64,000 bases of DNA from an uncultured Gemmatimonadales bacterium (GCA_963809895.1 CAWELD010000003.1:3040001-3104000); one strand, 5' to 3'. Shown: positions 23,681 through 58,027, counted from the first letter of the stretch. Numbers and translations are program-made. The notes: generated by a model not told the origin, from the letters alone.

Positions 23681-26337
23681 AGCGGCGGGGCCACTGGCCG
23701 GAGCGCCTCTATGGCGCCGGTCTCCGCATCCTCCCTCGCCGCTTTCGTGAGGCCTACGGCGAGGGGATGCAGGCCATGTTCCGGGACGAATGGCTCTCCC
23801 GGGGGCGCCTGGGCCGGGCCCGGCTCGCGGTGCGCTCCGTGGTGGATCTGACCTGGACCGCGCTCCGGGTGCGCGTCGGCACCGGGCGTGAACACGGGAT
23901 TTCCGAGGAGGGGATGATGACGACGGGGTGGATCGGCCTGCGACTGGATGTGCGGACGTCGCTGCGGGCGCTGCGGCGCTCCCCTCTCTTCACGGTCACG
24001 GCGACGTTGTCGCTGGCCCTGGGATTCGGCGGTGTCGCCACGGTGTACTCGCTGGCGGATCACATGCTGCTGGACCCCATCGAGGGCGTGCGCGCGCCCG
24101 ACGAGCTCGTGGAGCTCACGCCCTCCGGGCTCCCCTACCCCGTGATCCAGGATTTCCAGCAGGGTGTCCGCGGCCTGACCGGCGTGGCAGCGCACCGCAT
24201 GCGAACTGTCGCCCTTGAGCTGGGCTCCGGCGCGGACGCGAGGCCGGTCCAGGCAGGGGTCGTGTCCGGCAACTACTTCGACCTGCTGGGAGTGGCTCCC
24301 GCTCGTGGTCGCCTGTTGACGCCGACCGACACGGTCCAGGGTGCGTCTCCCGTCGCGGTCCTCTCCCACGCGGTCTGGACCGAACTGGGCGAGCGCGACG
24401 ACATCGTCGGGTCGGACGTCCGCATCAACGGCGCGAGCTTCCGGGTCGTGGGCGTGGCTCCGGCACGGTTCGTGGGATTGCGGCTGTGGGCGCATCCCGC
24501 GGTCTGGATTCCTGTGGAGAGCTGGCCCCTGGCATCACTGGGACGCACGCCCGACGTGCATAGCCGGGGGTGGGGCTGGATCGCCGCGGTGGGCCGCCTC
24601 GCACCGGGTGCGTCGCTGGCTTCGGCCACGCAAGAGGCCCGGGTCACCGCCCAGCGGATCGCCACCGAGCACCCCGAGAATGCCGGCGACCTTGACGATC
24701 TGGGCGTCAGCCCCGCACGTCTGCGGGTGGCCGACCAGGCCGGTGGGGTGTTGCAGCCGCTGCTCCTGGCCCTGGCCGGCATGGCTCTGCTGGCCCTTCT
24801 CGCCGCGGCGGCGAACGTGGCGAACCTCCTCCTCGCACGTGCGACGAGGCGGACCCGGGAGCTGGCGGTGCGCGCCGCCCTGGGGGCCGGGCGAGCGCGC
24901 CTGGCCCGCCTCGCCTTCGTGGAATGTGCGCTGCTGGTGGTCGGGGGCGGCCTGCTGGGCGCCGGCCTCTCGTTCCTGGCGCTCCGGGGCCTGGGCGCGG
25001 TCACGCTCCCGGGCGGGATCCGCATCGGGGCCGGCTTGAGCCCGGATCCGCGGTTCATGGCGCTGGCCGGCACGCTCCTGCTCGCCGTGGTGGTGGTGGC
25101 CGGCCTGGCGCCGGTGCTGGCGGCCTCTCGTGCGTCCGCGCGGATGGCTGGCTCCGACCGATCCGGTGGGGCGGGCCCCCGAAGCGTACGGCTCCGGGCG
25201 GGCCTGGCCGCAATCCAGGTGTCCGCCGGCGTCGTGCTGTTGGCGGGCACCCTGCTCTTCGGCCAGAGCATCCTGAAAGCACTCCGCGTGGACCTGGGCT
25301 TCGACGCGCAGCGCATGGCGGTGGTCCGGATCGATGCCTCGCTGTTCCGCGACGATCTCGGCTCCGCGGGGTCCGCGTTGTCTCGTCTGCTGGACGACAT
25401 CCGCCGGCAGCCAGGCATCGACGCCGCGTCGTGGTCCACCGTGGCCCCGCTGACCCGCGACTGGGAGCAGGAGAGCTTCGACATCGTCGGCCGCGCGTGG
25501 CCCGACCGGAAACCCACGGTGGAGGTGAACGCCGTGGGAGGCGACTTCTTCGCCGCGTCGGGGATTCCGCTGGTCGCCGGAGATCCCGCGGCCGTGCGGT
25601 CCCCGGTGCGTACCCCGTCCGTGGTGGTGACCGAAGCGATGGCTCGACGCTACTGGCCCGGCGAGAGCCCGGTGGGATCCCACGTCGTCATCATGGGGAT
25701 GGAGCTTCAGGTGGTGGCGGTGGCGGCGGACACCCGCTTCCACGGATTCGATGCCGATCCCACGCCCACGGCCTTCGGCCTCCTCCCGGTCCTGCCCTCC
25801 TCGTCCATCAGCATCGTGGCGCGGGGCCCCGGGGCCGAATCGCTTCTCGGTTCGGTGCGCGGGCTGGCGCGGGCGGTGGATACACGGCTGGTCGTGGCGG
25901 ATCAGGCCACGGGCGACACCATGGTGGGACTCCTGCTGGCTCCTCAGCGCGTGGGCGGCGCGGTGGCGCTCCTGTTCGCGCTGCTGGCCATCGCCCTGTC
26001 GCTCACCGGCGTCTACGGGGTCGTGGCCTACGGTGTGACCGCGCGTCTGCGCGAGTTCGGCGTCCGGCTCACCTTGGGTGCCGGACCGGGGCGCGTGACC
26101 GGCGAGGTGCTGCGCCGCAACCTGGGCGTGATGGTGGGGGGCGTGCTCCTGGGCGTGGCCGTGTCGCTGATCCTCACCCGCCTCGGCGCGGCGTACCTCT
26201 TCGGCGTGGCCACTTCCGACGCGCTCCCGGCGCTGGTGGCCGGACTCGGCGTCCTCGTCATGGCGACGGTCGCCATGTGGATGCCCGCACGCCGTGCCGG
26301 CCAGGTCGATCCCGCCACGGTGCTGGCGGCGGAATAG
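23677..26337 (+). CDS. Duplicated orphan ABC permease (ADOP, MacB/FtsX-like)
   Basis: DVRTSLRALRRSP, VSGNYFDLLGV, ANVANLLLARA..R.RELAVRAALGA, second REFGVRLTLGA, PARRAGQVDP; overlaps padR stop. Confidence 0.9.
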   Translation: MKRRGHWPERLYGAGLRILPRRFREAYGEGMQAMFRDEWLSRGRLGRARLAVRSVVDLTWTALRVRVGTGREHGISEEGMMTTGWIGLRLDVRTSLRALRRSPLFTVTATLSLALGFGGVATVYSLADHMLLDPIEGVRAPDELVELTPSGLPYPVIQDFQQGVRGLTGVAAHRMRTVALELGSGADARPVQAGVVSGNYFDLLGVAPARGRLLTPTDTVQGASPVAVLSHAVWTELGERDDIVGSDVRINGASFRVVGVAPARFVGLRLWAHPAVWIPVESWPLASLGRTPDVHSRGWGWIAAVGRLAPGASLASATQEARVTAQRIATEHPENAGDLDDLGVSPARLRVADQAGGVLQPLLLALAGMALLALLAAAANVANLLLARATRRTRELAVRAALGAGRARLARLAFVECALLVVGGGLLGAGLSFLALRGLGAVTLPGGIRIGAGLSPDPRFMALAGTLLLAVVVVAGLAPVLAASRASARMAGSDRSGGAGPRSVRLRAGLAAIQVSAGVVLLAGTLLFGQSILKALRVDLGFDAQRMAVVRIDASLFRDDLGSAGSALSRLLDDIRRQPGIDAASWSTVAPLTRDWEQESFDIVGRAWPDRKPTVEVNAVGGDFFAASGIPLVAGDPAAVRSPVRTPSVVVTEAMARRYWPGESPVGSHVVIMGMELQVVAVAADTRFHGFDADPTPTAFGLLPVLPSSSISIVARGPGAESLLGSVRGLARAVDTRLVVADQATGDTMVGLLLAPQRVGGAVALLFALLAIALSLTGVYGVVAYGVTARLREFGVRLTLGAGPGRVTGEVLRRNLGVMVGGVLLGVAVSLILTRLGAAYLFGVATSDALPALVAGLGVLVMATVAMWMPARRAGQVDPATVLAAE

Positions 26338-26406: not shown

Positions 26407-29400
26407 TCAGCCTCCGCCGTTTCCTCCCCCACCCGAGGTCGTGGTGTCGCTTCTCGGATAATCGAAGGCCCGGTTCGGATAGGGCGGCGCATCGGGCACC
26501 GTCACCGGCTCCTCGGCCAGCTTGCCGAGCAGGTACTCGACCGCGGCGTCGAGCTGAGCGTCCTCGCCGTTGAAGGTCGCGTGCGGAAGGTTGTCGACCT
26601 CGATGTCGGGCACCACGCCGATCTGCTCCACCAGCCAGATGCCGTCGGGGCCGTACACACCCGTCATGGGCGCCCGTGCCAGGCCCCCGTCGCTGAGCGT
26701 GTTCACGCTGGACAGCCAGATCTCACCACCCCAGGTGCGCATGCCGATCACCGGCCCCAGTCCCAGGCGCCGGAAGCCCTCGGCGAAGGCCTCGCCGTCG
26801 GAGGCGGTCTCCTGGTCCACCAGCACCACCAGATGGCCCGCGGAAGGCGTACTGCATGTTCCAGGTGTTCTGGCCCACGCGGCCCTTCCAGTACATCCAC
26901 GCTTCACGGATCAGATCGCTCAGGACGAAGCTGTCGATGCTACCGCCGTTGTTGGAGCGTACGTCGACGATGAGCCCCCCGCGGTCGAAGACCGGATAGA
27001 ACTGGCGGTACCACTCGGTGATGTTGCCGCCGCTCATGGCGCGCAGGTGCACGTAGCCCAGCTTGCCGTCTCCGGCCTCCTCGACCCGCTCGCGGCGCGT
27101 GACCTCCCAGTCCGCGTAGCGCAGGCCGAAGTCGCTGCCCATGGCGGTGGCCACCGCCTCGAACGGCTCGCCACCTTCGGAGGGACGGACCGACAGCAAC
27201 ACCTGCTTGCCGGCCTGGCCGCGCAGCAGGGCGCCTACGTCGGGCACCTCCGCGGTAGGCTGTCCGTTGACGGCCACGATCACGTCGCCCTCGTCGATGC
27301 CCAGCGCCGGGTCGGCCAGCGGGCTGCGCTCGTCGGGGTAGTCGGGATCGTTCTTGTAGATGTGCTCGATGACGTGGCCGCCGGCCGCCGGGTCCAGCCG
27401 CGTGCGGGCGCCCAGCGACGCCACGTTGACGTCATCCGGCCCCTCGCGCAGGTCGCCGCCCCGCACGGCGGTGTGCAGCGCGCTCAGCTCTCCCACCACC
27501 TGGCCGATGACGTCGCTCAGCTCGTCGCGGGTCGTCACCCGGTCCACCAGGGGCAGGTAGCGGTCCCGCACCGCCCCCCAGTCGTTGCCGTGCATGCCCG
27601 GGTCGTAGAAGTAGTCCCGCTCCAGGCGCCAGGCATCGATGTAGATCTGCCGCCAATCCTCGCGGGGATCGATGGCGAAGGACCATCCGCCCAGGTCGAT
27701 GCCGGCGTCCGACAGGTCCGCGCGGGCGGGCCGGGCGTCGATCACGAAGAGGCCGCTCCCCCGTCGGACCAGCATCTTCTTGCCATCGGCCGACAGCTCG
27801 AAGGAGCCGATGCCCGCCGCCACCTCCACCGGCTCGGGGTCGTCGTTGCCGATGGTCATCGCCATGAGCTTGCGGCCGGGCCCGTCGGGGTTGGCGTCGG
27901 TCCAGAAGAGCGCCTTGTCGTTGGCCTGGAGTGCCGCATGGGTACCGGCCTCGACGGGCACCCGCCACACGCGTGCCATGAGCCCGTCGGCATCGACCGT
28001 GACCGCGGGCGGAGCGCCGTTTCCGGCACGCGAAGCGGCGCCCCCCGCTCCCGGGGCTCCGGTGCTCGACGAGTCCTCCTCGGCCATGAGCTCGTTGTCG
28101 GGCCGGAACGGGTTGTCGCCGTCGGCCCTGAGCGCCACGACGTAGAGCTCCATGGGATTTTCGAAGTACGGCTGCGGCGCGCGGGGCCCCCAGGGGGATC
28201 CCACGGCGGAGCGCAGGTTGCGGTCGCTCAGGAAGAAGAGGTGCTCGCCGTCACGGGACCAGGCGGGGTTGGCGCTGTTCACCCTGTCGCTGGTGACGTC
28301 CACCGACGTTCCCGTCTGCGAATCCCACAGGCGGATGCGCTGGAAGGAGTTCATGCTGGCCATCCGGAAGGCCAGCCAGCGGCCGTCGGGCGACCAGGTC
28401 AGGTCGCCCACCCCCTCACGGTTCTCCGAGATCACCCGAGGCTCGGAGCCGTCGGCGTGGCGCACCCACAGGTCGTTGTTGTTGTCCGTGTAGGCGATCC
28501 AGGCGCCGTCGGGCGAGGGCGTGGCGCCGAAGCGCAGGATGGTCCCGTCGTCGGTCAACGCCTCACCCTCCCCCACGCCGTCGGTGGGCAGGGCCATGAA
28601 CTCGAGCTCCCCGGACTCATCCGAGAGCACCAGCACGTGCTCGCCGTCGGGGGTGAAGGCGGCGTCGCGGTAGCGGACGCCGTCGTCGTGGCTCACGCGC
28701 ACCAGCCGGCCCGACTTCACCGGCGCCACGAAGACCCGTCCCCGGGACACCATGGCCACGTGCTCGCCCTTGGGATCCAGACTCACCGACTGGAGCGACT
28801 GCACCGGGTTCGTCACCCACTTCTCCCGCACCTGATCGAAGTCGCTGGCCAGGGTGATGGGGATCCGGCGCGGCGTGTCGGTGCCCACGTCCCAGCGCCA
28901 CAGATCGGCGCCGACGTTGTAGACGATGGTACCGTCGGACATGGTGGGCGCCCGGATGTCCATGCCGCTGTGGCGCGTGTGCTGAACCAGGTCACCGCCG
29001 TCGGGCGTCATGGACCACAGGTTCATGGTGCCGTCACGGTCGCTCACGAAGTAGACGCGCCCGTCCCACCACATGGGGCTGTGGCTCTCGCCGTCGTAGC
29101 TGCCCGTGAGCTCCACCGCTTCGGCGGTGCCGGACATGTCGTAGCGCCAGATGTCCCGGGCGGTCCCACCCGTGTAGCGCTTGGTGACGTTGTTGTGAAA
29201 GGCCGGCCGTGCGAAGAACAGCGCCGAGCCGTCGTCGTTGAAGACGCCCTCGGTGGCCTCGGACAGGGGGATCACGTCGCGGGTCTCGGTGGCCAGGTCC
29301 ATGGCCACGAGCTGCGGCCGGGGAAGCGTGGAGTACTGGACCGTGGTGAACACGAGACGCCCGTCGGGCATCCAGGTCGTGGCCAGCGCGCCGTTGGAGG

Positions 29401-29803
29401 TGTAGGTCCGGCGCGTCGTGGGCCCCCCGGAGAGGGGCATCGTGTACACGTCGGTGCTTCCCTCGTAATTGCCCGAGAACGCCAGCGTCGAGCCGTCCGG
29501 TGAGATCTTGGGCGCGCTCTCGCGCCCCGGGTGGGTGGTCAGGCGCTGCGCCATCCCCCCTTCGAGGGGCACCCTCCACAGATCCCCCTCGGCCTCGAAC
29601 ACCAGCGTCGAGCCGTGGAGCGAGGGGAAGCGGTAGAAGCCGAGCCCGTCGTCGACCGAGCCCACGTCGGCCGGAGCGACGTGATCGATGAGCGCGGGGG
29701 TCGGCGCTGCAGCGCGGGTCTGCGCGACCACGCCGCCGGCGGGCGCCAGGAGGAGGGCCAGGGCCGTGAAGACCGGACGGACGGAGCATCGGAGCGCGGA
29801 CAT
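26407..29803 (-). CDS. Tricorn protease homolog (S41 family: beta-propellers, PDZ); apparent frameshift at 26837-26839
   Basis: YRFPSLHG, KRYTGG, RDYFYDPGMHG, GELSALH, GYVHL, DVRSNNGG, TASDGE catalytic serine, GMRTWGG; removing one G gives AFRGHLVVLVD (~1130 aa). Confidence 0.9.
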
Positions 29804-32673: not shown

Positions 32674-33099
32674 ATGACCCTCCACGGCAAGACGCGACGC
32701 TTCGCCACCCTGCCAGTCGTGGCATTCCTGTGCCTCGGCCAGCCTGGGCTGCCGTGCGCGGTTCATTGCCTGATCTTCGGCCGCATGGCCTCCGCCATGA
32801 CCTCGGCCGTATCGCCCCAGCCAGCCGCCCGGCCCGGCGCCCGTGGGATGCCCCGGATGGCGCAGGCCGAAGGACGGGATCCGACGTCCGGCCACGGCGG
32901 CGCGCACTCCTTCTGTCACCCCGACGATGCATCGCAGCCCGGAGCGCCCGCGCATCTGCGGCATCGGAACCCGATGACCGTCGCTCCGCACGCGGGGGTC
33001 GACTTCCTCGCCGGCATCTTCGATGCCTCCGCACCCGCCTTCCGAGAGCCATCCGAGGACCTGCCGTCTCCACCTCGGGGTCCCCCACCCCGCGCCTGA
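32674..33099 (+). CDS. Putative leader/arrest peptide (DUF2946-like) with Cys/His residues and C-terminal RGPP
   Basis: Hydrophobic N-terminus, CAVHC, HSFCH, ends PSPPRGPPPRA; 101 nt before a porin gene; start uncertain. Confidence 0.6.
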   Translation: MTLHGKTRRFATLPVVAFLCLGQPGLPCAVHCLIFGRMASAMTSAVSPQPAARPGARGMPRMAQAEGRDPTSGHGGAHSFCHPDDASQPGAPAHLRHRNPMTVAPHAGVDFLAGIFDASAPAFREPSEDLPSPPRGPPPRA

Positions 33100-33200
33100 G
33101 AGCCCTGACGCCGGCGGCCCTTCGCGGCGCCGGTGCATTCCAATTCGATCGATCACACACGATCGGTCGCACGCAACGGAACTGCTCTCACAGGAGTGGT

Positions 33201-34385
33201 ATGTCCATGTCCCAATTCTCGTACGCCCGCCGAGCACACGGGGCGGTAGCGCTCGCGGCTTTACTGGCGCTCGCTTGGCCGCTCCCGACCGCCGCGCAGC
33301 AGGATACGACTCGCACGAGCGAGACCTCCATCGACCTGGGCGAGCTCGGTGGGCAGGAGTTGGAGTCGCTCACCGGAGAGGATGCGTTCCCGCTGCAGAT
33401 CACCGGATTCGGCATCGGCACCTACGACCTCGACGCGCGCACCTCCGAGAACACCTTCGCCGGCAGTAAGCTGGCGGTGGCCCTGTTCCGGGAGATGAGT
33501 GACCAGATCTGGTTCTTCGGCCAACTGACGACGGCATTGCAGGAGCCCGAGTCCCCCGACGAAGAAGTCGCCACCGAGATCGAGATCGACAACCTGATCG
33601 TCAACTTCACGCCGGCCAGCGCGACCAACCTCAGCCTCAGCTTCGGCAAGTTCGACTCGCCCATGGGCTTCGAGCGGGACGACGAGCCGCTCAATCTGCA
33701 GCCGACCGAGAGCTACAACTTCGAATTGGCGCGACCGCCCAAGATGGTGGGGATGATCGGCCGCTGGTCCCCGACGCCTGAAGCCGATGTCGCCGCCTGG
33801 TTCGCCAACGGCTGGGGAGACGCCGTCGACTCGAACCACGGCAAGACCGTCGGGCTGCGGTTGGGCGTGAGGCCGAGCGACATCGCGAGTTTCGGTATGG
33901 CCGGTCTGTGGGGCCCCGAGGGCGAGACGGGCGAAACAAACAACCGATACCTCCTCACCTTCGACTACGCGATCCAACCGACACCCGACTTTCTCGTGGC
34001 CGGCGAAGCGAACTACGGCGGTGACCGGGGCGTGATGGACGACGGCGGCGATGCCCGCTGGTACGGGGGCCTCCTGACGCTGTTCGGGCGACTCGACCGC
34101 AACTTCGGCGTCACGCTGCGTGGGGAGACGTTCCGGGACGAGGACGGGGCGCGCACCGGGGATCCCCAGACGCTCCAGTCAGTCACCTTCACGCCGGTCT
34201 ACTTCGTGGGCACCGGGCGCGAGGGGATCTTCGCGAACGTGGAGCATACGACGCTCCGGATCCCGCGCTTCCAGCTACGGGGCGGCATCCGTTACGACCA
34301 CTCGAGCATCGACGCCTTCGAGAGCGATGCCGGGGAGTCCAACTGGAGCCTTCGGTGGGTCGCCGAGCTGGTGGCGACGTTCTGA
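33201..34385 (+). CDS. Outer-membrane beta-barrel protein (putative porin)
   Basis: Signal peptide ending AAQ, GKFDSPMGFE, NGWGDAVDSNHGKT, alternating strands, C-terminal F; CAGGAG RBS. Confidence 0.8.
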   Translation: MSMSQFSYARRAHGAVALAALLALAWPLPTAAQQDTTRTSETSIDLGELGGQELESLTGEDAFPLQITGFGIGTYDLDARTSENTFAGSKLAVALFREMSDQIWFFGQLTTALQEPESPDEEVATEIEIDNLIVNFTPASATNLSLSFGKFDSPMGFERDDEPLNLQPTESYNFELARPPKMVGMIGRWSPTPEADVAAWFANGWGDAVDSNHGKTVGLRLGVRPSDIASFGMAGLWGPEGETGETNNRYLLTFDYAIQPTPDFLVAGEANYGGDRGVMDDGGDARWYGGLLTLFGRLDRNFGVTLRGETFRDEDGARTGDPQTLQSVTFTPVYFVGTGREGIFANVEHTTLRIPRFQLRGGIRYDHSSIDAFESDAGESNWSLRWVAELVATF

Positions 34386-35676: not shown

Positions 35677-38382
35677 TCAGCCCTCGGCCCTCAACGCCTC
35701 GTTGGGGTCTACACGTAGCGCACGCAGCGTGGGGCCGGTGCAGGCGGTGAGCCCGACCATCACCAGCAGGCCGACGCACGCTGCCAGCACGCGTGCAGCC
35801 CAGGCGTATCGTGCCGCGTCGCCGGTGGAAAAGAACTCCACGGTCAGTGGGAGGCAGCCCAGCAGCACGCCCAGCATCAGCTGGCCCACCGCCCTCCTGA
35901 CCACCGCGCCGACGATCTCGGGCCGCCCGGCGCCCAGGGCCACTCGGATCCCGATCTCGGTGGTCCGCTGCGCCACTGCCGACGACATGATGGCGTAGAT
36001 GCCCGAAGCAGCCAGGGCCAGGAGCACGCCTACGAGTAGCCCGGCGCCCACGCCCGCAGCCAGGATGAGATACCAGTCGCCTTCGTACACCCCATCCAGC
36101 GGACCCACCACCGACACGATCATCGCCGGATCCACCTGCCCCGCGAGCTCCCTCAACCGGGGAGAGAACGAGGCTGGATCGCCACCCACATGAATCCCCA
36201 GGTCGAGGGTCGCCAGGTCGCCGGCTGCCACGGGCACGTACACGCCCTGATCGTTCCGCGGTGACGCGATGCGCATCCCCAGGTGTCCGACCACCCCGAC
36301 GATCTCCTGCCAGGGCCCCGGCTCACCTTCGCCCCAGGGCACGAAGCGAATCCTGCGACCGATGGGGTTCTCGCCGCCCAGAACGTGCTCCACGAAGGTG
36401 GTGTTCACGATCACGACGTCATGGCCCGCTTCGACGTCCGCGACCTCGAAGTCGCGCCCGGCCACCACCGGCCGGTCCAGCGCCTGGAAGTAGTCCACGG
36501 CGACGCGGGCGACCCGGCTCGACACCCCTCGCCGGTCGTCGGGCGACGCCACGTCCTCGGCCTCCACGCGGGAGGTGTGGTGGTCCATCCTCGGCAGCGC
36601 ATCGGCCACCGCGACGCCCCGCACCTCCGGCGCTTCGCGAAGTCGCCGGAGCAGCTCCTCCTGCGCGCCGGCCATGCGCTCTCGCCGGTCGCGGGCGCTC
36701 CCCACACTCGGGGCCTCGCCGATGCCCGACGAGAGGCGGACCGTCGCCGCCAGATACTCGCCCGCGGGGATGCCCACGGAGTCCTCTGCGGTGCCGGCAC
36801 GGCGGAGTTGGTCCACGGCGGTCATGGCCAAGGCCACGGCTATCACCGACACGGCCACGTCCGCCACGATGAGAATCCCCGACAGCCCTCCGAATCGGAC
36901 GCCGGTCCGGCGCGTCCGGGCCCGTCGGATGTTGGACTGTACCGAGCGACCGGTGAAGCGCAGCGCCGGCACGACCCCGGCCACCGCCGCGCTCACCCCG
37001 GCCAGCGCCAGCGCATGCAGCGCGGTCGCCGGGCGTACGTCCAGGTCGATCCAATAGGGTGCGGCCGCGGCCCATGTGGCCGGCATCAGGCGCCACATCG
37101 CCTCGACGATCCCCTGCATCAACAGGAGCCCTGCAGCCGCGGCCACGAGGGCCAGTACCAGACACTCGACGAACACCTGCGCCACGATACGCGTGCGGCT
37201 CGCGCCCAGAGCGGTGCGCACGGCGAGCTCGTCGGCGCGGGCGGAGGTGCGCGCGAACACCAGCATGCCGACGTTGGCGCACGCCACCAGGAGCACCAGC
37301 CATGCGAGCCCCTGGAATCCCAGGAACTCGGGGGTCGTGCGCAGGCTCCCGTTCAGACCACCCGCCACCATGAGGGCGAAGGGCTCCACCTGGTACCTCA
37401 GTCTGAAGTCGGGCCCTGGAGCGGCGGAGCGCGATGCCACCAGCGTGAACTCAGCGTCGGCCTGCGCCTGGGCCACATCAGGGCGGAGTTTCCCGAAGAT
37501 CCGCACCGGCGCCACGGATTCCGGTCCACCCCCGGTGACGGCGCGCAGCGGCGTCCACAGGTTCTCGTGCTTCGGAAACAGGAAGCCCTGGGGCATCACC
37601 CCGACCACCGTATGCGGCTCTCCTCCCAGGCGGACGACCCGCCCGACGATGTCCCGGTCGCCCCCGAAACGGCTCTGCCACACGTCGTAGCCCAGCACGG
37701 CGACCTGCTCCGCTCCAGGCGCCTGGTCGGCGGATTGGAAGGTCCGCCCCAGCAGCGGGCTCACGCCCAGGATAGCGAAGCTCGAGGCCGTGACCTCGGC
37801 GCCGCGCACGACCTCCACGCCTTCGCCGGACCCCAGGTTGTAGCGGGTCTCGCGGAAGGCACCGAGCTCCTCGAACGACGTGAGGGAGCCCTTCCACGCC
37901 TCGAAATCCCGAGTCGTAGTGTGCATCACCTGGCCCAGCCCCCGGCTCCACACCTTGAGCCAACGGATCTGCGCCCCCTCCGGAACGGGGAGCGGCGCGG
38001 TGAGCCCATCCACGAAGTGGCCCGGAGCCAGCCCCACCGGGATCCCCACGGCCAGCGCGAAGGTCGACACCAGGGTGAGTCCCGGGTGCTTCACGAGCAT
38101 GCGGGCGCCCAGCTTCACATCGAGCCAGGAAAAGAGGCGGGCCGGGCCAATCGACCTGTCGGCCGCTGCGCCCGGCTTCCGGGAAAAGCGCTCGCGGACG
38201 CCGGCGGCCGTCAGGTTGACGGTCGTCCGCACGAGGAACGCCGCCAGCGCCAGCCAACCCCGGCCACGCCGTTCGGTCCACGCTCGCGCAAACGTCTCGC
38301 GCATGCCGTCGCCGTGTCGCTCGCGGAATGGGGCCGGAAACAGCCGCAGCAACAGGTCGAACCAGCGCTCGGCCAGCCTCAC
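35677..38382 (-). CDS. Duplicated orphan ABC permease (ADOP, MacB/FtsX-like)
   Basis: LDVKLGARMLVKHPG, ACANVGMLVFAR, ELAVRTALGASR, QRTTEIGIRVALGA, PTLRALRVDP. Confidence 0.9.
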   Translation of the reverse strand: MRLAERWFDLLLRLFPAPFRERHGDGMRETFARAWTERRGRGWLALAAFLVRTTVNLTAAGVRERFSRKPGAAADRSIGPARLFSWLDVKLGARMLVKHPGLTLVSTFALAVGIPVGLAPGHFVDGLTAPLPVPEGAQIRWLKVWSRGLGQVMHTTTRDFEAWKGSLTSFEELGAFRETRYNLGSGEGVEVVRGAEVTASSFAILGVSPLLGRTFQSADQAPGAEQVAVLGYDVWQSRFGGDRDIVGRVVRLGGEPHTVVGVMPQGFLFPKHENLWTPLRAVTGGGPESVAPVRIFGKLRPDVAQAQADAEFTLVASRSAAPGPDFRLRYQVEPFALMVAGGLNGSLRTTPEFLGFQGLAWLVLLVACANVGMLVFARTSARADELAVRTALGASRTRIVAQVFVECLVLALVAAAAGLLLMQGIVEAMWRLMPATWAAAAPYWIDLDVRPATALHALALAGVSAAVAGVVPALRFTGRSVQSNIRRARTRRTGVRFGGLSGILIVADVAVSVIAVALAMTAVDQLRRAGTAEDSVGIPAGEYLAATVRLSSGIGEAPSVGSARDRRERMAGAQEELLRRLREAPEVRGVAVADALPRMDHHTSRVEAEDVASPDDRRGVSSRVARVAVDYFQALDRPVVAGRDFEVADVEAGHDVVIVNTTFVEHVLGGENPIGRRIRFVPWGEGEPGPWQEIVGVVGHLGMRIASPRNDQGVYVPVAAGDLATLDLGIHVGGDPASFSPRLRELAGQVDPAMIVSVVGPLDGVYEGDWYLILAAGVGAGLLVGVLLALAASGIYAIMSSAVAQRTTEIGIRVALGAGRPEIVGAVVRRAVGQLMLGVLLGCLPLTVEFFSTGDAARYAWAARVLAACVGLLVMVGLTACTGPTLRALRVDPNEALRAEG

Positions 38383-38735
38383 CGGGACTGCTCCGGCAGC
38401 AAGCGCCGCTCCCGGGCGAGGGCGAGGGCGTCCTGGAGACGAGCGGCTTCCGCTCGTAACGCCTCGCGTCCCTCGGCGGTCAGGCCGTAGTAACGCCGCG
38501 GGCGTCCTCGCGTGTCGGCGGGCGCGTCGCCCGGCGCCTCGACCTCTTCGACGAGGCCTTCGTCCAGCAGGCGGTCCAGGACGCGGTAGAGAGAGCCGAT
38601 CTCGGCCGACACCTTACCGGCGGAGTCGCGCTCTACGGCCTTCATGATGCCGTACCCGTGCAGGGGATCTTGCGACAGCGCCATGAGGACGTGCCAGTCG
38701 CGCGCGCTCAGGGGAAGGACGTCGGGGTCGGCCAT
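38379..38735 (-). CDS. PadR family transcriptional regulator
   Basis: LHGYGIMK, GSLYRVLDRL, RRYYGLTAEG; overlaps permease start. Confidence 0.92.
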   Translation of the reverse strand: MADPDVLPLSARDWHVLMALSQDPLHGYGIMKAVERDSAGKVSAEIGSLYRVLDRLLDEGLVEEVEAPGDAPADTRGRPRRYYGLTAEGREALRAEAARLQDALALARERRLLPEQSR

Positions 38736-44471: not shown

Positions 44472-44552
44472 GTCGCAAAGTGACTGGAACGCGCGCCGTG
44501 GCGCCAGCCTGCGCACTGGACCATGCGCCGCTCTTTCCGCTAGCATCCATCC

Positions 44553-44879
44553 ATGGCTCGCCTGCTTCTCACCTGGATCGGCTTCACCGTCCTGCAACTC
44601 GGGGCGCCCAGCGGCCCGAGCGTGGCGGCGTTCCGTCCGGGTGGCGAGTCCACCCACGCGGTGCCACAGGTCGAGCTGCGCTCGTCGGCTGCGTTCGCCC
44701 TCAGCGACGCCCGGGGGCACGACCTCCGGGGGGAGCACGCCGCGCCACCCCTGCCGTCCAGACCTGGACGGCTCACCCTCGCTCCTCCCTGCGGCGCGCT
44801 GACGCCGCAGATCCCCGGACCGTCCGGTCCGGCGTCGAGCGGGCTCGCCCTCCCGGAAGCCCGAGCCCCTCCCGCGTAG
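44553..44879 (+). CDS. Putative secDF-monitoring translation arrest leader peptide (RAPP motif)
   Basis: 108 aa; hydrophobic N-terminus, low-complexity linker, ends ARAPPA-stop; 104 nt upstream of secDF. Confidence 0.7.
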   Translation: MARLLLTWIGFTVLQLGAPSGPSVAAFRPGGESTHAVPQVELRSSAAFALSDARGHDLRGEHAAPPLPSRPGRLTLAPPCGALTPQIPGPSGPASSGLALPEARAPPA

Positions 44880-44970
44880 TCCCTGCTCCGACAACACGAC
44901 GAACGATCTCGCGCCGGCCGACACTGCGGCGGGGCGCGTACGCTCGTCCATCGTTCACGACAGGACTACG
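44875..44970 (+). promoter_or_regulatory. Predicted long stem-loop linking the leader stop codon to the region before the secDF start
   Basis: CGTAGTCC(C)TG 44875-44885 pairs with CAGGACTACG 44961-44970; GAACGAT 44901-44907 with ATCGTTC 44950-44956; CGCGCC 44910-44915 with GGCGCG 44933-44938. Confidence 0.6.
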
Positions 44971-44983
44971 ACGGTGAAGACCC

Positions 44984-47418
44984 ATGAAGACCATCCGATC
45001 ACGCATGCTGCTGATCGCCCTGCTCGCGCTGGGCAGTGTGGTATCCCTCCTTCCTCGCACGGTCACGGAACGCGCCTACGATCCGGACACCGGCCATGTG
45101 GTCGAGACCACGGCGCGCAGGGTCCCCATCGAGCTCGGTCTCGATCTGCGCGGGGGAACGCACCTGGAACTCGAGGTGGACCGATCCAGGGCACCGAAGG
45201 CCGACTGCGCCGATGCCATCAGCGGTGCGGCGCAGATCATACGGAATCGCGTGGACGAGTTCGGCACCCTGAGCCCGGTCATCCAGGTCGCGGGGGATTG
45301 CCGGTTGATCGTCGAGCTGCCGGGCGAGCGCGACCCGGTGCGCGCCCGCGCAATCGTCCAACGGACCGCGTTTCTCGAATTTCGGCTGGTGGACGCCGAG
45401 GACCGGTTCGACAGGCTCGCCGCGTCGGTTGCCGAGGCGACGGGTGAGACCGGCGCACTCGTACGCGGGGCGATGCCGGGCGAGTATCTCGTGCCCGAGC
45501 GCCTGGCGGAGCCGGTCGAGAGCGCGCTCACATCGACTGGCTCCCGCAGGCTGCTGCCGTCCACCCTGGAGGTCCGGTGGGGGACGGAGGTACGCCAGCT
45601 TCGGGGCACGGCATACCGCGCCTTCTACGTCGTCGGGTCCGACGCCGTAGTCACGGGCGAGAAGCTGGTCGGGGCCATCTCCGCACACGACCCTCTCACG
45701 TCCACACCGCAGGTGCAGTTCGAGCTGACCCGCGCTGCCGGTGAGGCCTTCGCCGACGCCACCGGCCGCCATGTGGGCGAGTACCTCGCCATCCTCCTCG
45801 ACGGTCGCGTGCAGGGAGCGCCGGCGGTGATCCGCGAACGCATCGGCTCCACCGGACGCATCGAGTTGCCGGGCCGGTCGATGCAGGAAGCGGGAGACCT
45901 GGCGCTCACCCTTCGCGCCGGCGCGCTGCCGGCGCCACTGCGTGTGGTGGACCAACGCTCCGTCGGCCCGTCGCTGGGCAGCGATTCCATCGCCGCGGGC
46001 GTGCGCACGTCCGTGCTGGCGGTGGCCGTGGTGGTGCTGGCCATGACCCTCTACTACCGCTTCTCGGGCGTGCTCGCCGTGGGAGCGCTCGCCCTCTACC
46101 TCCTCTACTCCCTGGGCGGGCTGGCCGTGTTGGGCTCCACGCTGACGCTGCCCGGCATCGCGGGCTTCGCGCTGGCCATCGGCATGGCCGTGGATGCGAA
46201 CGTGCTCATCTTCGAGCGGATTCGCGAGGAGCTGTCGCCTTCGGGCTCGGCGCGTGTGGCGGTGGACCGGGGGTTCCGCCACGCCATGAGCGCCATCGTC
46301 GACTCGAACGTGACCACCGCCCTCACCGCCTTGATCCTCTATCGCGTGGGGACCGATCCGGTGAAGGGATTCGCGGTCACGCTGCTCATCGGCCTGTGTG
46401 CTTCGATGTTCGCCGCGGTCTTCGTCACCCGCACCCTCTTCCTGATCTGGCTGCGGCGGAAGGGGCGAAGCGCCAGACTCGCGTACCGGACCGTGAGGCC
46501 CCTCGCGCGGGCGCGCTACCGCTTCATGCGCGCACGGCGATGGGTCCTCGCTCTCTCGGGCACCTTCATCGTCGCCGGCCTGCTGATGCTCGCCGTGCGG
46601 GGCATGAGCTACGGCATCGACTTCACCGGAGGCACGCTGCTCCAGGTCCGCACCGAGAGGCCGGTTCCCATCACCACGATCCGCTCCGCTCTGGCGGACG
46701 GTCCCTCGGCGCGGCGGAGATCCAGCGCTACGGCTCCGACCGGGATTTCCTCGTCCGCACGGGCCCCGAGGACATCGGCACCGCGGCTCCCGCCGGGGCC
46801 GGCGGCTCCATGGCGCAGGGAGTTCGCTCGCAGGTGAGTGATGCCCTGGACGCGGCCCTCGGCCCCGACAGCCACGAGATGCTGCGCGCCGACGAGGTCA
46901 CGCCGCAGGTCGGCCACGAGCTCCAGCAGAGGGCCGCCGCGGCGATCGGACTCAGCTTCGTGAGCACGCTCGCCTATCTCGCGATCCGCTTCGAGTGGCG
47001 CCTGGGATCCGCAGCCGTGCTGACCACGGCCCACGACATCCTCGCCACCCTGGCCTTCATGCGGATCTTCAACCTGGAGATGAGCCTGATCACGGTGGCC
47101 GGGGTCCTCACCGTGATCGGCTATTCGCTCAACGACACCATCGTGATCTTCGACAGGGTACGCGAGAACCGGCGGGCGGGGCCCCGGGAGGGACTCCGGG
47201 AGGTGCTGGACCGATCCATCAACGAGACGCTGCCCAGAACCGTTCTCACGGCGGGGACCACCCTGCTCGCGGCACTCCTTCTGGCGAGCTTCGGCGGCGA
47301 GACCATCCGACCGCTGGCACTCGTCATGAGCTTCGGCATCACGGTGGGCACGTTGTCTTCGATCTTCGTGGCATCACCGGTGCTTCTGTGGCTCACCCCC
47401 TCCGGGGATCGCTCCTGA
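44984..47418 (+). CDS. secDF: Fused protein translocase subunit SecDF; apparent frameshift near 46703-46705
   Basis: LGLDLRGG, LRAGALPAPL, VGPSLG, GMAVDANVLIFERIREE, DSNVTT, GIDFTGG, then HD, GYSLNDTIVIFDRVREN, INETLPRT in the next frame; one added base gives ~810 aa. Confidence 0.92.
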
Positions 47419-47494: not shown

Positions 47495-49930
47495 CTATTC
47501 GATCCCCAGCGACCTCATGGGGTCCACCGAAGACGCACGCCGTGCGGGCAGGTAGCTCGCCAGGAGCGCCACGGCCAGCATGACGGCGGACATGGCCAGG
47601 AAGGTCGGCGCGTCGAGGACCTGGACCCCGAAGAGCATGCTCGCGAGAAAGCGTGTCACGCCCAGGGCGGCGAGCACGCCCACCGCCACTCCGACGAGTG
47701 CCACCCGGCCGCCCTGCCACACCACCATGCGACGCAGGGCCGGCGGCTCCGCGCCCAGCGCCATGCGCACCGCGATCTCGCGCGTGCGCTGCGTCACGAG
47801 ATAGGAAAGAACGGCGTAGAGCCCGACCGCACCCAGGATGGTCGCCAACGCCGCCGCGATGCCGAGCATGAGCATGGTGAACGACAGGCTGGCCATGGTG
47901 CTGGCCACCAGGCCCTTCATGGTGAAGACCCTGTACATGGGCGATTCGGGGATCATCTCGTTGATGATGGCGCGGACGTCCGGGGCGAGTCCCTCGGCCC
48001 GGGCCGACTTCACGACGTACGCGGGCGACAGGGACACCGCGGGCAGATACACCATGGGCTGCGGAGGCTCGCGGAAGTCGTGGATGCGGACGTCCTCGAC
48101 GACGCCGATGATGGTGAACCACTGCTGGCCGGTCTCGGGACGGATCTGCTGGTCCAGGGGATTCTCACCCGGGAAGAGCAGATCGGCCGCTGCCTGGCTG
48201 ATGATCACGTTGGGCGTGCCCTCCTGCTCCTCGACGCGCTCGAACAGGCGGCCACGCAGGAGCTGGATGCCCATGGTCTCAAAGTACGCGCCTCCCGCAC
48301 CGGCGTTGTTGATGGGCGGCGGCTCGGCGCCGCTGGCCGCCATGGCCCGGGTGGTGACGGTCGTCTGCCCTGCGCCTTCGTCCAGCGGCAGGGTGGTGAT
48401 GTAGCCCACCGACTCGACGCCGGGGAGCGCCGCCACCCGGTCCATGAACTCGTACTGGAAACGGGACACCGAGGCGCGGTCCCTCAGGTCGTCGCGGTCC
48501 GGTGCGATCTGGAAGGTGAAGATGCCCTCGGTGTCGAATCCGGGATCCACGTGGCTGAGCTGCCAGAAGCTGCGCACCAGCAGCGCCGATCCCACCAGGA
48601 GCACCAGGGCCGAGGCGGTCTGGACGACCACCAGCGCGTCCCGCGCCAGCCCGCGGCGACCGACCACGCCGCGCCCCGCGTGCCCGAGGCTGCCGAGGAG
48701 CCCGGTGCCCGAGTAGCGGATCGCGGGCAGAAGCCCAAAGGCGAGCGCCGCCACCACCGAGATCCCCACGGTGAAGAGGAGCGCCGTTCCATCGAGGCCC
48801 GCCGTGGCCAGCCCGGGGATGGGCGCGCTCCGGAAGCCTCCGGCCACGGCGTCCGGCGCGGCACGAATCAGCAGCGGAACGCCGGCCCAGGCGAGGAGCG
48901 CCCCGACCAGGCCCCCGGCGGCCGCCAGCAGCAACGCCTCCGCCATCTGCGCACGCACGAGTCCCGCGCGGCCAGCGCCCAGGGCCCGCCGCACGGAAAA
49001 GTCCCGGCGACGACCCTCCGCCCGGACCGTGAACAGATTCGCCACGTTCGTGCACGCGATCAGGAAGACGACGGCGACGGTGCCCAGCACGATCCACAGC
49101 GCGGTCGAGACACTGCCGACCAGGTGCTCGCGGAGGGGCACCACGATGGGGCGGAAACGCTCCATGATCCGGGCGTAGGGGGCGGGGCCACCCAACCGCT
49201 CCTGCACGCGCGCAGCCAGGGGTTGGAGCTGGGCTTCGAGCCCGTCGCGGTCCGCGTCCGCGGTCATGCGGGCCACCACGCCAGCCCCGAACCCACCCGG
49301 GGTCACCTGAGCGGCGCGGATCTGCCAGGGAACCCAGAAGGCGGTGCGCTCGTCGGGAAACCGGAACCCTGGCTCGAGAACGCCGATGACGGTGCGGGTC
49401 TCGCGAGCGAATTCGTAGCTCCGGCCCACCACCTCGGGATCGGCCCCGAACCAGTCCTGCCACAGCCAGTTGCTCAGCACGACCACGCTGTCGTCGTCGT
49501 CTTCGTTCGGAAGCCGACCCACCACGGCCCGCGCGCCGAGAGTCGTGAACAACGACGGCGTCGCCCGGGTCAGAAAGAGCTGCTCGGTGTGGCCCTCGGC
49601 CCGGGTCGTGGACGACCCCGTGCCGTACGTGCCGAGGTCTTCGATGGTCGGCACGCTCTCGTCGTACTCGAGGTAGAGCTCGTCGGGGACGCCGAGATCG
49701 GCGGGAAGGTCCGTCCCGGGCGCCGTGCCCCCGATGTAGACCAGCCGGTCGGCGTCCGGAAACGGCAAGGGCTCCAGGAGCACCGAGCGCACGACGCTGA
49801 AGATCGCGGTGTTCGCTCCGATGGCGAGCGCCAGCGTCATCACGATCACGACGGTGAACAGCGGCGCGCGCGCAAGGCTGCGCGCGGCGAGCTTGAAATC
49901 CCTTACCCACGCTTCCAGGCTCCTGCCCAC
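47495..49930 (-). CDS. Duplicated orphan ABC permease (ADOP) lacking the N-terminal helical prefix
   Basis: RDFKLAARSLARAP, LALAIGANTAIFSVV, IACTNVANL, QRTREIAVRMALGA, PARRASSVDP; GTG 49930 with AGGAGG RBS. Confidence 0.9.
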   Translation of the reverse strand: MGRSLEAWVRDFKLAARSLARAPLFTVVIVMTLALAIGANTAIFSVVRSVLLEPLPFPDADRLVYIGGTAPGTDLPADLGVPDELYLEYDESVPTIEDLGTYGTGSSTTRAEGHTEQLFLTRATPSLFTTLGARAVVGRLPNEDDDDSVVVLSNWLWQDWFGADPEVVGRSYEFARETRTVIGVLEPGFRFPDERTAFWVPWQIRAAQVTPGGFGAGVVARMTADADRDGLEAQLQPLAARVQERLGGPAPYARIMERFRPIVVPLREHLVGSVSTALWIVLGTVAVVFLIACTNVANLFTVRAEGRRRDFSVRRALGAGRAGLVRAQMAEALLLAAAGGLVGALLAWAGVPLLIRAAPDAVAGGFRSAPIPGLATAGLDGTALLFTVGISVVAALAFGLLPAIRYSGTGLLGSLGHAGRGVVGRRGLARDALVVVQTASALVLLVGSALLVRSFWQLSHVDPGFDTEGIFTFQIAPDRDDLRDRASVSRFQYEFMDRVAALPGVESVGYITTLPLDEGAGQTTVTTRAMAASGAEPPPINNAGAGGAYFETMGIQLLRGRLFERVEEQEGTPNVIISQAAADLLFPGENPLDQQIRPETGQQWFTIIGVVEDVRIHDFREPPQPMVYLPAVSLSPAYVVKSARAEGLAPDVRAIINEMIPESPMYRVFTMKGLVASTMASLSFTMLMLGIAAALATILGAVGLYAVLSYLVTQRTREIAVRMALGAEPPALRRMVVWQGGRVALVGVAVGVLAALGVTRFLASMLFGVQVLDAPTFLAMSAVMLAVALLASYLPARRASSVDPMRSLGIE

Positions 49931-55071: not shown

Positions 55072-57678
55072 CTAGTCCGCCCGCAACGCGCTCTGGGGAT
55101 CCAGCCGGGCAGCGGCTCGGGCCGGTAGCCAGCTGGCCAACAGCGCCACGGAGGCCAGCAGGATCGGCACCGCCACCAGCGTGAGCGGATCGGTGGGTGC
55201 CACGCCGAACAGCAGCCCGGAGACGAGTCGCCCCAGAAGGAGCGCGCCGAGCAACCCCAAGGCCACACCGGCGAGGGCGAGGCGCATCCCCTGGCCCACG
55301 ACCAGGCGCACGACCTCGCTCCGGCTGGCGCCCAGTGCGATACGCACGCCGAGCTCCGCGCGACGTTGCGTCACCGTGTGGGCCACCACCCCATAGAGCC
55401 CGATCACCGACAGCAGGAGCGCCAGGCCCGCGAATCCCCCGAACAGAAGAAGGTTCATGCGGGGACGGACCGCATACTCCGCCGCCACGGCCTCCAGCGT
55501 GCGGACCTCGGTGACGGCTTGCGCCGGGTCGATCTCGTGGACGACGGCCGTGGCCGCGTCCACCAGCGATGTCGGAGCTCCCGCGGTCTTGAGTGTCACC
55601 ACCAGGGCCGGGCGCGGGAACTGTGCGAAGGGGAGGTAGATCGCCGCCGAAGCCCGGGTCCACGGACCCTTTTCCCGCACGTCTCCCACGACCCCGATGA
55701 CCTCGCCCGCGCGGGCACCGTTACCGAGGCTGAACTCGATACGCTTGCCGACGGGGTCCTGGCCCGGATAGAGCTGGCTGGCCAACGTCTGGTTGATCAC
55801 GAAGACGGTGGGCGTGTCCTGGGATTCCGTGCCGTCGAAGACCCGACCTCGCACGACGGGGATGCCCAGCGAGCGGAAGTAGTGACCGGCCACGCTGCGC
55901 ACATCGGCATCGGGCCTGGCGCGCCCCACCGACCGCGGCCCGTCGGCGACCTGGACGGGAGATCGCATCTCGAGTGACGTCAGCGGAAGGCGTCCGGCGA
56001 CGCCCACGGCGTCCACGTCGGGGAGCGCCTCCAGCCGTCCCGGAAGCTCGGAGGCCAGCCGGAAGAGCCCGTCGATCCGGGCGGTGGTGAGCCGGAGCGT
56101 GAGAACGTCTCCGGGCCGGACGCCCATGTCCACCGACACCAGCCGGTCCAGACTCCGCACCAGCAACCCCGCCCCGGTGAGGAGGACGAGGGCGAGCGCG
56201 ATCTCGGCAACCACCAGCGTACGGCGGAGGCCCGACCGCGACGGTCCACTCCCGGCCCGAGTCGGGGCCGCCTGCTGCGGCCCGCCCCACGGACCGGCGA
56301 GGCCGGGGAGCGTTCCGAACGCGAGGCCCGTCAGCAGGCACACCCCCGCCGTCACGCCCACCACCCGCAGGTCCACGCTCACCTCGTCGAGGCGCGGCAG
56401 CGCCGCGGTGGAAGCGAGCATGCGAACCAGGACACGAGTGCCCGCGACCGCCAGGCCCAGCCCGAGGGCGCCGGCAGCGCCGACCAACACCAGACCCTCG
56501 GTGACCAGCTGTCGGACCACCCGGCCCCGCGCGGCACCCAACGACCGGCGAATGGCGATCTCGTGGCTGCGCGCCGCTCCCCGGCCCAGAAGCAGGTTCG
56601 CCACGTTGGCGCAGGCGATCAGGAGCAGCAGACCCACGGCCCCGAGCAGTGCCAGGAGCGCGGGACGCGCTTCCCGGGTCACGGTGTCCCGCAGTGAAGA
56701 GAGGCCGACCACGTCGGGGCGCCCGTCGGACCCTGGATCGGCGGGAAGGCCCTGCGAGATCGCCCCCAACTCCGCCCGTGCCTCCTCCACGCCGGCGCCG
56801 GGACGCAAGCGGGCGATGACCTGAAGCGACGCCGCCGCCGGCAAGCGGCTCACATCCGCCGGCATCCACACGTCGGCGCCACCGTCCATGTCGTGGAACT
56901 CCGGACCCATCACCCCGACGATGGTCGGCGCCGCTCCTGTCTCGAAGGTGAGCGCGGTTCCGATCACGCCGGGATCCCCCCCGTAGTGCCGCATCCAGAA
57001 GCGATGGCCGAGCACGACAGCGGCCTCGCCCTGGACGAAGCTCCGACCGAGCTGGGGACGCATGCCCAGGACATCGAAGTAGTTCGGCGTGGTGAGGCGC
57101 AGCACGACCTCGTCAGGAGGACCGTCTCCCGCGACGTTCTCGCGAGACTCCGACCCACCCCCGACGACCGCCGCCATGTCCTCCACCGTCCGGCTGCCGT
57201 CGCGGAGCGCCAGGAAGGTCGAGGCGCCGAGAAGCCTGCGCCCGTCGGGTGTGGGGCTCCCCTGCCAGATCGAGACGAGTCGATGGGGATCGCGAAACGG
57301 CAAGGGCCGGAGCAGCACCGACTCCACCAGGGTGAACATGGTGCTGCTCGCCCCGATACCCAGCGCCAGTGTGAGCACCACCAGGGCGGTGAACCCCGGT
57401 GTGCGCGCGAAGCTCCGAACCGCGAAGCGCGCATCCTGGAGCGCGGCCCCCGACCATTCCCGGAGCCGCATTCTGGTCTCGTGCCTCCTGGCTGCGCGCT
57501 CCAGGGCCCGCCGTTTTCGGGATCCCCCGAAACGCCGGAGCGCCTCCGTGCGCGCTTCCTCCAGCGAGAGCCCCTCCGCTCTCAAAGACTCGACCCGGAG
57601 CTCCAGATGGAGACGGATCTCCTCGTCCAGATCCTCCCAACGATCTCGCGGCAGGGAACCACGCCCGGGCTTCGCCAT
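55072..57678 (-). CDS. Duplicated orphan ABC permease (ADOP) with permease prefix domain
   Basis: DLDEEIRLHLE...EARTEALRRFG prefix; QDARFAVRSFARTPGF; IACANVANLLL; QRRAELGVRIALGA. Confidence 0.92.
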   Translation of the reverse strand: MAKPGRGSLPRDRWEDLDEEIRLHLELRVESLRAEGLSLEEARTEALRRFGGSRKRRALERAARRHETRMRLREWSGAALQDARFAVRSFARTPGFTALVVLTLALGIGASSTMFTLVESVLLRPLPFRDPHRLVSIWQGSPTPDGRRLLGASTFLALRDGSRTVEDMAAVVGGGSESRENVAGDGPPDEVVLRLTTPNYFDVLGMRPQLGRSFVQGEAAVVLGHRFWMRHYGGDPGVIGTALTFETGAAPTIVGVMGPEFHDMDGGADVWMPADVSRLPAAASLQVIARLRPGAGVEEARAELGAISQGLPADPGSDGRPDVVGLSSLRDTVTREARPALLALLGAVGLLLLIACANVANLLLGRGAARSHEIAIRRSLGAARGRVVRQLVTEGLVLVGAAGALGLGLAVAGTRVLVRMLASTAALPRLDEVSVDLRVVGVTAGVCLLTGLAFGTLPGLAGPWGGPQQAAPTRAGSGPSRSGLRRTLVVAEIALALVLLTGAGLLVRSLDRLVSVDMGVRPGDVLTLRLTTARIDGLFRLASELPGRLEALPDVDAVGVAGRLPLTSLEMRSPVQVADGPRSVGRARPDADVRSVAGHYFRSLGIPVVRGRVFDGTESQDTPTVFVINQTLASQLYPGQDPVGKRIEFSLGNGARAGEVIGVVGDVREKGPWTRASAAIYLPFAQFPRPALVVTLKTAGAPTSLVDAATAVVHEIDPAQAVTEVRTLEAVAAEYAVRPRMNLLLFGGFAGLALLLSVIGLYGVVAHTVTQRRAELGVRIALGASRSEVVRLVVGQGMRLALAGVALGLLGALLLGRLVSGLLFGVAPTDPLTLVAVPILLASVALLASWLPARAAARLDPQSALRAD

Positions 57679-57688
57679 GGCCCCCTCC

Positions 57689-58027
57689 TCAGGCGCCGCT
57701 CGGACGCGACGTGAGGATGGCGGCCATCACGTCCTGCAACCGCAGAAGCTGGTCCGTCTCTGCCCGCAGATGGTCTTCACCTCGACGGGTGATCTCGTAG
57801 TACCGCGCCCGTCGGTTGTTCTCCGTCACGCCCCAGTCGGCCCCGACCATGCCCTTCTTCTCGAGCCGGTAGACGGCCTGATACACGCCCGAGTCGTCGA
57901 ACTCCAGCGAGCCGCCAGAGCGCTCCTCGATCCACTGGGTGATCTCGAAGCCGTGCTTCGCTCCGTCGCTCACGGCTTTGAGAACCAACAGATCCAGCGT
58001 GCCTTTCAGCACAGGAAGCTCGCCCAT
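57689..58027 (-). CDS. PadR family regulator (acidobacterial type)
   Basis: LKGTLDLLVLK, HGFEI, VYQAVYRLE, WGVTENNRRARYY. Confidence 0.93.
   Translation of the reverse strand: MGELPVLKGTLDLLVLKAVSDGAKHGFEITQWIEERSGGSLEFDDSGVYQAVYRLEKKGMVGADWGVTENNRRARYYEITRRGEDHLRAETDQLLRLQDVMAAILTSRPSGA

Follow-up and report, generated by a model that had tools for sequence, protein, structure and literature searches.

A probable secretion-monitoring arrest-peptide leader upstream of an accessory secDF gene in Gemmatimonadota

In a 64,000-nt stretch of DNA from an uncultured Gemmatimonadales bacterium (GCA_963809895.1, CAWELD010000003.1:3040001-3104000; hereafter the window), a 108-codon ORF ending in a RAPP motif precedes an accessory fused secDF gene (secDF2), and its product is probably a secretion-monitoring arrest peptide that feedback-controls this backup SecDF. 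In the proposed mechanism, slowed export would lead to arrest on the leader, the ribosome stalling at RAP-P with Pro106 in the P site. The stalled ribosome would cover the 5′ strand of an outer stem, unmask the secDF initiation region, and switch secDF2 on; secretion of the leader would release the arrest, upon which the stem would re-form and repress secDF2. We infer both the stalling and the secretion dependence of the leader. Such a switch is supported because the uORF is conserved, a housekeeping secDF copy exists, and the stem lies under the footprint of the stalled ribosome. The features of the locus are as follows.

44517..44522, plus strand: putative -35-like hexamer TGGACC, 18 nt before the -10 box
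44541..44546, plus strand: -10-like hexamer TAGCAT, 6 nt before the leader ATG
44553..44879, plus strand: candidate arrest-peptide leader ORF of the uDF_RQH type, 108 aa, ending LPEARAPPA-TAG
44553..44630, plus strand: signal-peptide-like N-terminus, residues 1-26 (hydrophobicity; conserved M-x-R-x-x-L start; pN/pS 0.64)
44631..44849, plus strand: spacer of about 75-80 residues with fixed length and free sequence (pN/pS 0.77, then 1.00)
44862..44873, plus strand: R104-A105-P106-P107, the putative arrest motif (pN/pS 0.04 over RAPPA)
44868..44870 and 44871..44873, plus strand: predicted P-site Pro106 and predicted A-site Pro107 (register taken from the ApdA/ApdP and RQH papers)
44872..44885, plus strand: outer stem, 5′ strand, made up of the codons for Pro107 and Ala108, the TAG stop, and the next bases
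44890..44955, plus strand: inner helices and GC-rich hairpin, holding 9 of the 11 pairs changed on both sides
44961..44974, plus strand: outer stem, 3′ strand (CAGGACTACG plus CGG), the upstream half of the secDF initiation region
44973..44977, plus strand: SD-like GGTGA, 6 nt ahead of the secDF start codon; relatives do not conserve it as such
44984..47418, plus strand: accessory fused secDF (secDF2), with SecD and SecF Pfam domains in two frames

The earlier note had described a 108-aa ORF with a signal-like N-terminus and an ARAPPA-stop end, and ORF translation and hydropathy bore this out. The N-terminus reads MAR-LLLTWIGFTVLQLGA-PSGPSVAA and is the sole hydrophobic stretch of the ORF (Kyte-Doolittle 11-mer score of 2.18 at residue 4 and at most 1.14 further on); the signal may be cleaved after VAA. 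The ORF, which lies 104 nt from the secDF ATG, is annotated as an unnamed protein by NCBI/ENA, and searches of Pfam and NCBIfam gave no matching family. Positions 44767-45067 were matched by short-read contigs of two other runs with 0-1 differences. Read-through of the leader TAG into an ORF overlapping the secDF ATG was rejected, since that ORF is in frame here and not in most relatives.

By itself the motif is weak evidence, because R[AG]PP at most three residues from a stop occurs 276 times in a six-frame translation of this 69% GC genome; conservation alone lifts it above chance. A genome-wide filter for RAPP leaders returned 3 matches, a count that is uninformative because control motifs passed about equally often (0-4). 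The note's reading would fail if no RAPP-ending uORF were conserved before orthologous secDF genes. In our survey, a leader of 107-110 aa ending R[AG]PPA-TAG was found 95-109 nt before the ATG in all 17 other core loci with upstream DNA. These 17 loci come from 13 GTDB genomes, one with two copies, and three metagenome contigs; counted by locus, they are 12 genomes, L051 (the same sequence as L194, the second copy of genome G254), genome G019 (leader from a neighbouring contig), and the three contigs, with L047-L050 left out as repeats of earlier loci. R[AG]PPA ends every leader across 14 Longimicrobiales genomes, and the single natural motif variant among the core leaders is RGPP, a permissive substitution in ApdA/ApdP as reported (PMC7897499, PMC10951233). 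All core leaders have a hydrophobic 11-mer of 2.0-2.65 among their first residues, the signal being judged by hydropathy. Among 109 distinct other secD loci with at least 250 nt upstream, a set that excludes the core loci and eight distant leader-bearing loci, none had R[AG]PP near a stop; most of these 109 are presumably housekeeping copies behind a response-regulator or ribF-like gene. A leader profile matched 14 of 314 family genomes, identical to the 14 with a close secDF2, and gave one match in this genome; the profile was built from 13 of these same leaders, so that it is not independent evidence. A weak additional match in G254 (L195) shares the N-terminus only. A database search with the leader returned 16 proteins, every one ending RAPPA and named at most 'hypothetical protein'.

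Selection differed along the leader. In pooled, uncorrected comparisons of 13 leaders, pN/pS was 0.64 over the signal, 0.77 and then 1.00 over the spacer, 0.26 over the last nine codons, and 0.04 over RAPPA, while third positions of RAPPA differed in 42% of comparisons. The total length stayed near-constant (107-110 aa in all core members) while the spacer sequence drifted. A monitoring substrate should show this pattern and a folded exported protein should not, and the pattern indicates that selection acts on the leader peptide, at its ends only. That the ORF is an ordinary small exported protein or a chance frame in GC-rich DNA is hardly credible: the 276 chance frames and the passing control motifs speak for it, but it is already contradicted by this conservation pattern, with a neutral mature part and selection at the ends only, and by the strict linkage to one secDF clade set against 0/109 other secD loci.

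The earlier note had also proposed that 44875-44885 pairs with 44961-44970, 13 nt before the ATG. Folding confirmed this pairing, with one bulged C and core pair probabilities of 0.97-1.0, and it extends further than claimed: 44872-44874 pairs with 44972-44974, taking the first two G of the SD-like GGUGA. The fold of 44860-45000 alone was not significant (z -1.07; 28/200 shuffles as good); the fold from the P-site codon to the AUG gave z -2.80 (60 shuffles). Three elements recur in the individual folds: an outer stem that pairs the last codons and stop with GGACUAC, a set of two short middle helices, and a hairpin rich in GC. With default settings, RNAalifold found no consensus structure in a 14-sequence alignment; with 17 sequences, the structure emerged both from averaged pair probabilities and from RNAalifold run under other parameters. 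The resulting 36-pair structure has 79% of its cells paired in an unfitted 17-sequence alignment versus 33-40% when slid, and two-sided changes in 11 of 36 pairs versus 6.0 in shuffles (2/500 as high); these scores are favoured because the structure was taken from the same sequences on which it was scored, and the shuffle ignores kinship. For the outer stem alone, 2 of 9 pairs changed on both sides, and 124 of 500 shuffles scored as high. This stem thus counted alone shows conservation and little covariation, and coding constrains its 5′ side too. The alignment indicates that the multi-stem structure is conserved with moderate covariation. The leader stop is TAG in 17/17 aligned loci, compared with 753 of 3959 called genes (19%) of this genome, in line with its role in pairing. 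Rfam gave no match up to an E-value of 1.

We then placed a model ribosome on the leader. With Pro106 in the P site and toeprints at 15-17 nt from the P-site codon, its edge falls at about 44884, and in the modelled stall the outer stem has its 5′ strand covered. Opening -20..+13 cost about 16 kcal/mol in the model, 6-9 kcal/mol with the stalled footprint, and 18 kcal/mol with the ribosome 10 codons upstream. In 15 of the 17 core loci, the gain from the stalled footprint was larger than in every one of the 12 footprint shuffles. Opening SD..AUG alone gained just about 1-3 kcal/mol, and the GG of the SD pairs elsewhere in the stalled model. In the eight distant leaders, the unmasking effect never beat all shuffles and was negative in two. 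According to the model, a stalled ribosome would free the initiation region, with the SD itself released only partly. In the fold and the model, the conserved stem lies beneath the footprint of a ribosome stalled at RAP-P.

The partial release of the SD bears on an unlikely alternative, in which the peptide stalls but control is exerted on the transcript, through its protection against Rho-dependent termination or decay or through a standby site, and not by freeing the SD. It would fit an SD that is weak, variable, and largely still paired in the stalled model, and a stem that covers mainly -23..-10. It is countered by the failure of our scan to find an intrinsic terminator, by the position of the stem inside the 30S footprint, where opening is far cheaper with the stall, by the two distant loci L124 and L128, in which the leader end pairs directly with a GGGAG SD, and by the SD unmasking shown for an RQH member (PMC10987492). 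Less probable still is a second alternative, in which secretion is not sensed and leader translation opens the stem only transiently, through coupling or because the ribosome pauses as it terminates after RAPPA-TAG. The stop does stand one codon past the motif and is always TAG, and a translating, non-stalling ribosome gave basal expression in the RQH reporter as described (PMC10987492); this reading leaves unexplained the invariant R and P-P with free third positions, as well as the conserved signal-like start and the fixed spacer length. The secretion-monitoring switch is our preferred reading.

The upstream region suggests a leaderless leader transcript. In 12 of 18 core loci, and in 6 of 8 distant ones, TAnnnT precedes the leader ATG by 5-8 nt, against a background of 3.1% among 2793 called ATG genes in this genome; the core loci in this comparison are kin and not independent. 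Of the 12 core loci having the -10 box, 8 have TGGAC 18 nt before it, as here. A consensus promoter/terminator scan found neither a sigma-70 site nor an intrinsic terminator. The SDs of secDF are weak and variable across relatives. GTG at 44974 was rejected as an alternative start, as it is in a different frame and not conserved.

Near 46705, at a place where relatives have an additional base, the secDF2 frame is broken, which the earlier note had not remarked on; in the relatives, secDF2 is a single fused ORF of about 800-820 aa, to which the gene here aligns in two frames (1-574 and 575-799). A second frame break in the window, near 26800, falls in a gene that we take from its sequence to be tricorn-protease-like (26723-29803, minus strand). 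This makes an assembly error likely at 46705 as well, and the secDF2 frameshift is probably such an error; no bridging piece was found among the short-read contig pieces listed, and the gene here could still be a real pseudogene. This genome has two secDF loci. The earlier note had suggested looking for a second, housekeeping secD/secF locus, and we found one: a split secD-secF locus, located at C3:776.6-779.2 kb, whose upstream gap of 205 nt holds no RAPP-stop leader. Of 15 carrier genomes, a set that includes G409 of the wider clade described below, 13 gave a housekeeping secD: G000 (this genome), G003, G014, G015, and G019, and then 5/5 and 3/5 others. None turned up in G251 or G189, which are 62% and 75% complete, respectively.

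Searching with the secD part, we detected close secDF2 orthologues in 14 of 314 family genomes, including this one, and one distant copy in G237. Among 401 genomes sampled from across the phylum, we found no additional close secDF2 beyond family f1. Close relatives are titled Gemmatimonadota/Longimicrobiales. In a quick SecD tree (92 of 141 sequences after thinning, proteins shorter than 480 aa left out, midpoint root only), the leader-bearing fused secDF genes formed one clade of 19 rows with 99% SH-aLRT, nested among Gemmatimonadales-type SecD and apart from the Longimicrobiales housekeeping SecD. L054, L106, and L124 fall in a wider clade and have leaders that end RAPP-x-x-S and lie 127-183 nt upstream; L104 and L128 have leaders similar to these and are too short to place in the tree. 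The five secDF2 copies of genus g1 did not form a clade (p-AU 5e-10), and neither did the four g85 copies, both groupings having been named after the SecD tree had been seen. The secDF2 tree does not follow genus, and upstream neighbours vary between genomes. Sideways transfer of leader-secDF2 is the simplest reading of these trees and contexts; an old duplication with losses would also be compatible with them as long as they are read without a species tree.

G254 holds two leader-secDF2 cassettes, C10 (L194) and C11 (L034), and the C10 copy has several frameshifts. In the window, the surroundings of the cassette form a variable region, in which genes at 23324-26337, 35677-38735, 47495-49930, and 55072-58027 are presumably ABC-permease-like, most of them beside PadR-like regulators.

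A broader reading, which we offer as a doubtful possibility, is that a leaderless promoter, an arrest leader, a stem, and a fused secDF2 derived from a Gemmatimonadales-type secD make up a portable, self-regulating unit for backup export, less than 3 kb long, that moves sideways among Longimicrobiales, perhaps with another coupling ion as in Vibrio. Under it, arrest leaders would have been recruited to the accessory secD of this phylum more than once (the RAPP clade, and RGPP ahead of the split secD of G237). In two distant members, what the stall unmasks may be a 24-codon relay ORF coupled to secDF, and not secDF as such.

From its sequence, the leader can be assigned to the published RQH/ApdA/ApdP class as a probable new family. 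The RQH family comprises 19 groups in nine phyla, 11 of them before secDF, plus orphans (Fujiwara 2024, PMC10987492), and stem-unmasking of secDF2 was shown there for uDF_RQH_Enterobacterales (PMC10987492). The leader shares the features that define this family: it is a small uORF of no known family directly upstream of secDF, with an N-terminal signal or TM segment by hydropathy, a spacer of more than 30 residues (about 80), and a conserved C-terminal RAPP-like motif with at least three homologues in one order (14 Longimicrobiales genomes). Its host is outside Actinobacteriota and Alphaproteobacteria, and it is not homologous to SecM, ApcA, ApdA, or ApdP, an exclusion rule taken from the authors' script (Fujiwara 2024). 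As in RQH (PMC10987492), a downstream stem-loop would mask the initiation region; unlike there, the outer stem here is long-range (about 100 nt with nested helices) and the transcript looks leaderless. The genomes screened for RQH include Gemmatimonadota and Longimicrobiales (PMC10987492); the main text of that paper mentions neither Gemmatimonad nor Longimicrob, and its secDF list (Supplementary Data 3) or Supplementary Fig. 1 may hold such a group.

ApdA of actinobacteria and ApdP of alphaproteobacteria likewise combine RAPP near the C-terminus with a signal or signal-anchor and precede a presumably secondary SecDF2 (Sakiyama 2021, PMC7897499; Morici 2024, PMC10951233); they stall in a predicted register with RAP occupying the P site and Pro the A site (PMC7897499, PMC10951233). 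In contrast to these leaders of 128 and 140 aa, the one described here has 108 aa, its stop comes one codon after the motif, it belongs to another phylum (Gemmatimonadota), and no sequence match beyond the motif was found. Members of ApdA/ApdP have an actinobacterial or alphaproteobacterial host and a group-specific C-terminus; with its Gemmatimonadota host, the leader would work like them without being a member. For RAPP-type leaders the earlier note had cited only ApdA/ApdP; the wide RQH family, spanning nine phyla, is already published (PMC10987492). VemP controls the H+-type second SecDF in Vibrio (PMC11470409), and there too an arrest leader sits on the second SecDF (SecD2/F2) and the first copy has none; VemP, unlike the leader here, is without a RAPP motif, and ion specificity (Na+ versus H+) is known for Vibrio (PMC11470409). 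A PDB profile search gave no match to solved arrest peptides, only signal-like noise. Our literature searches found nothing joining Gemmatimonadota to arrest peptides or Longimicrobiales to secD, and nothing relevant joining leaderless transcripts, arrest peptides, and secDF; Gemmatimonad is not mentioned in ten supplements of PMC12992588 or in the text of the LudP preprint. The leader leaves the known mechanism unchanged. It would extend secretion-monitoring arrest peptides to a Gemmatimonadota family, adds a case for repeated recruitment of RAPP leaders to second secDF copies, and offers 18 loci as a clean natural series, where the selection pattern separates the signal, the neutral spacer of fixed length, the putative arrest motif, and the proposed repressor stem.

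RAPP/RGPP small secreted ORFs precede many gene classes (Fujiwara 2025, PMC12992588), and CruR/CutF-type leaders have, as here, a signal, a C-terminal RAPP, and a downstream stem (PMC12992588, PMC10987492). That the leader here responds to some other signal, for instance a periplasmic metal as suggested for that type, is very improbable in our view. Many RAPP leaders do stand before non-Sec genes (PMC12992588), and two His/Cys-rich RAPP/RGPP leaders occur in this genome; CruR/CutF-type leaders, however, carry metal-binding residues and have metal-gene targets (PMC12992588, PMC10987492), whereas the family alignment here shows no conserved Cys or His, the target is secDF, and the leader family was found solely before secDF2 wherever the context was read.

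One of these two leaders had been noted earlier as a mirror of the secDF layout at 32674-33203. The layout is indeed shared: the ORF at 32674-33099 (141 aa) bears a signal and Cys/His clusters, ends RGPPPRA, and precedes a BBP2 porin (33201-34385); GAGAG after the stop of this ORF pairs with CUCUC beside the AGGAG SD (fold z -2.09). Homology is not, as the family profile has one match in the genome and the target is a porin and not a Sec gene. This ORF looks like a CruR/CutF-type metal-sensing leader. A third RAPP leader in this genome (C3:2301806-2302141) has 111 aa with a hydrophobic N-terminus and a His/Cys cluster, ends RAPPFSL, and lies 111 nt before a 441-aa outer-membrane-like protein, with TTGACA and TAGCCT boxes upstream; in the MFE fold, its end pairs with the downstream SD region. 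Elsewhere in this genome, a second GGATCACCTCCTTT tail occurs at C10:1198749, with upstream sequence unlike the 16S end at C3.

In the distant loci L054 and L104, the last codons of the leader are complementary to the CAGGAG SD of a 24-codon ORF, the TGA of which overlaps the secDF ATG; from these two sequences, this ORF is possibly a relay by translational coupling. In G237, a signal-bearing ORF ending RGPPLPIG (L046, G237:C80) lies 120 nt before a split second secD of Longimicrobiales type, with a housekeeping secD copy elsewhere in the genome, and this leader is likely an independent recruitment. Two metagenome contigs (L103 and L132) have signal-bearing ORFs of 114-118 aa, which end TGPP-x-x-x and stand 130 nt upstream of a secDF of another type; a -10 box precedes the leader start. 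The RGPP leader of G237 and the TGPP leaders of L103 and L132 suggest repeated recruitment. Upstream of the housekeeping secD of genus g6 (L056-L071), a GC-rich 5′ region of ~130 nt with inverted repeats and no common ORF is strongly conserved, possibly as a structured leader.
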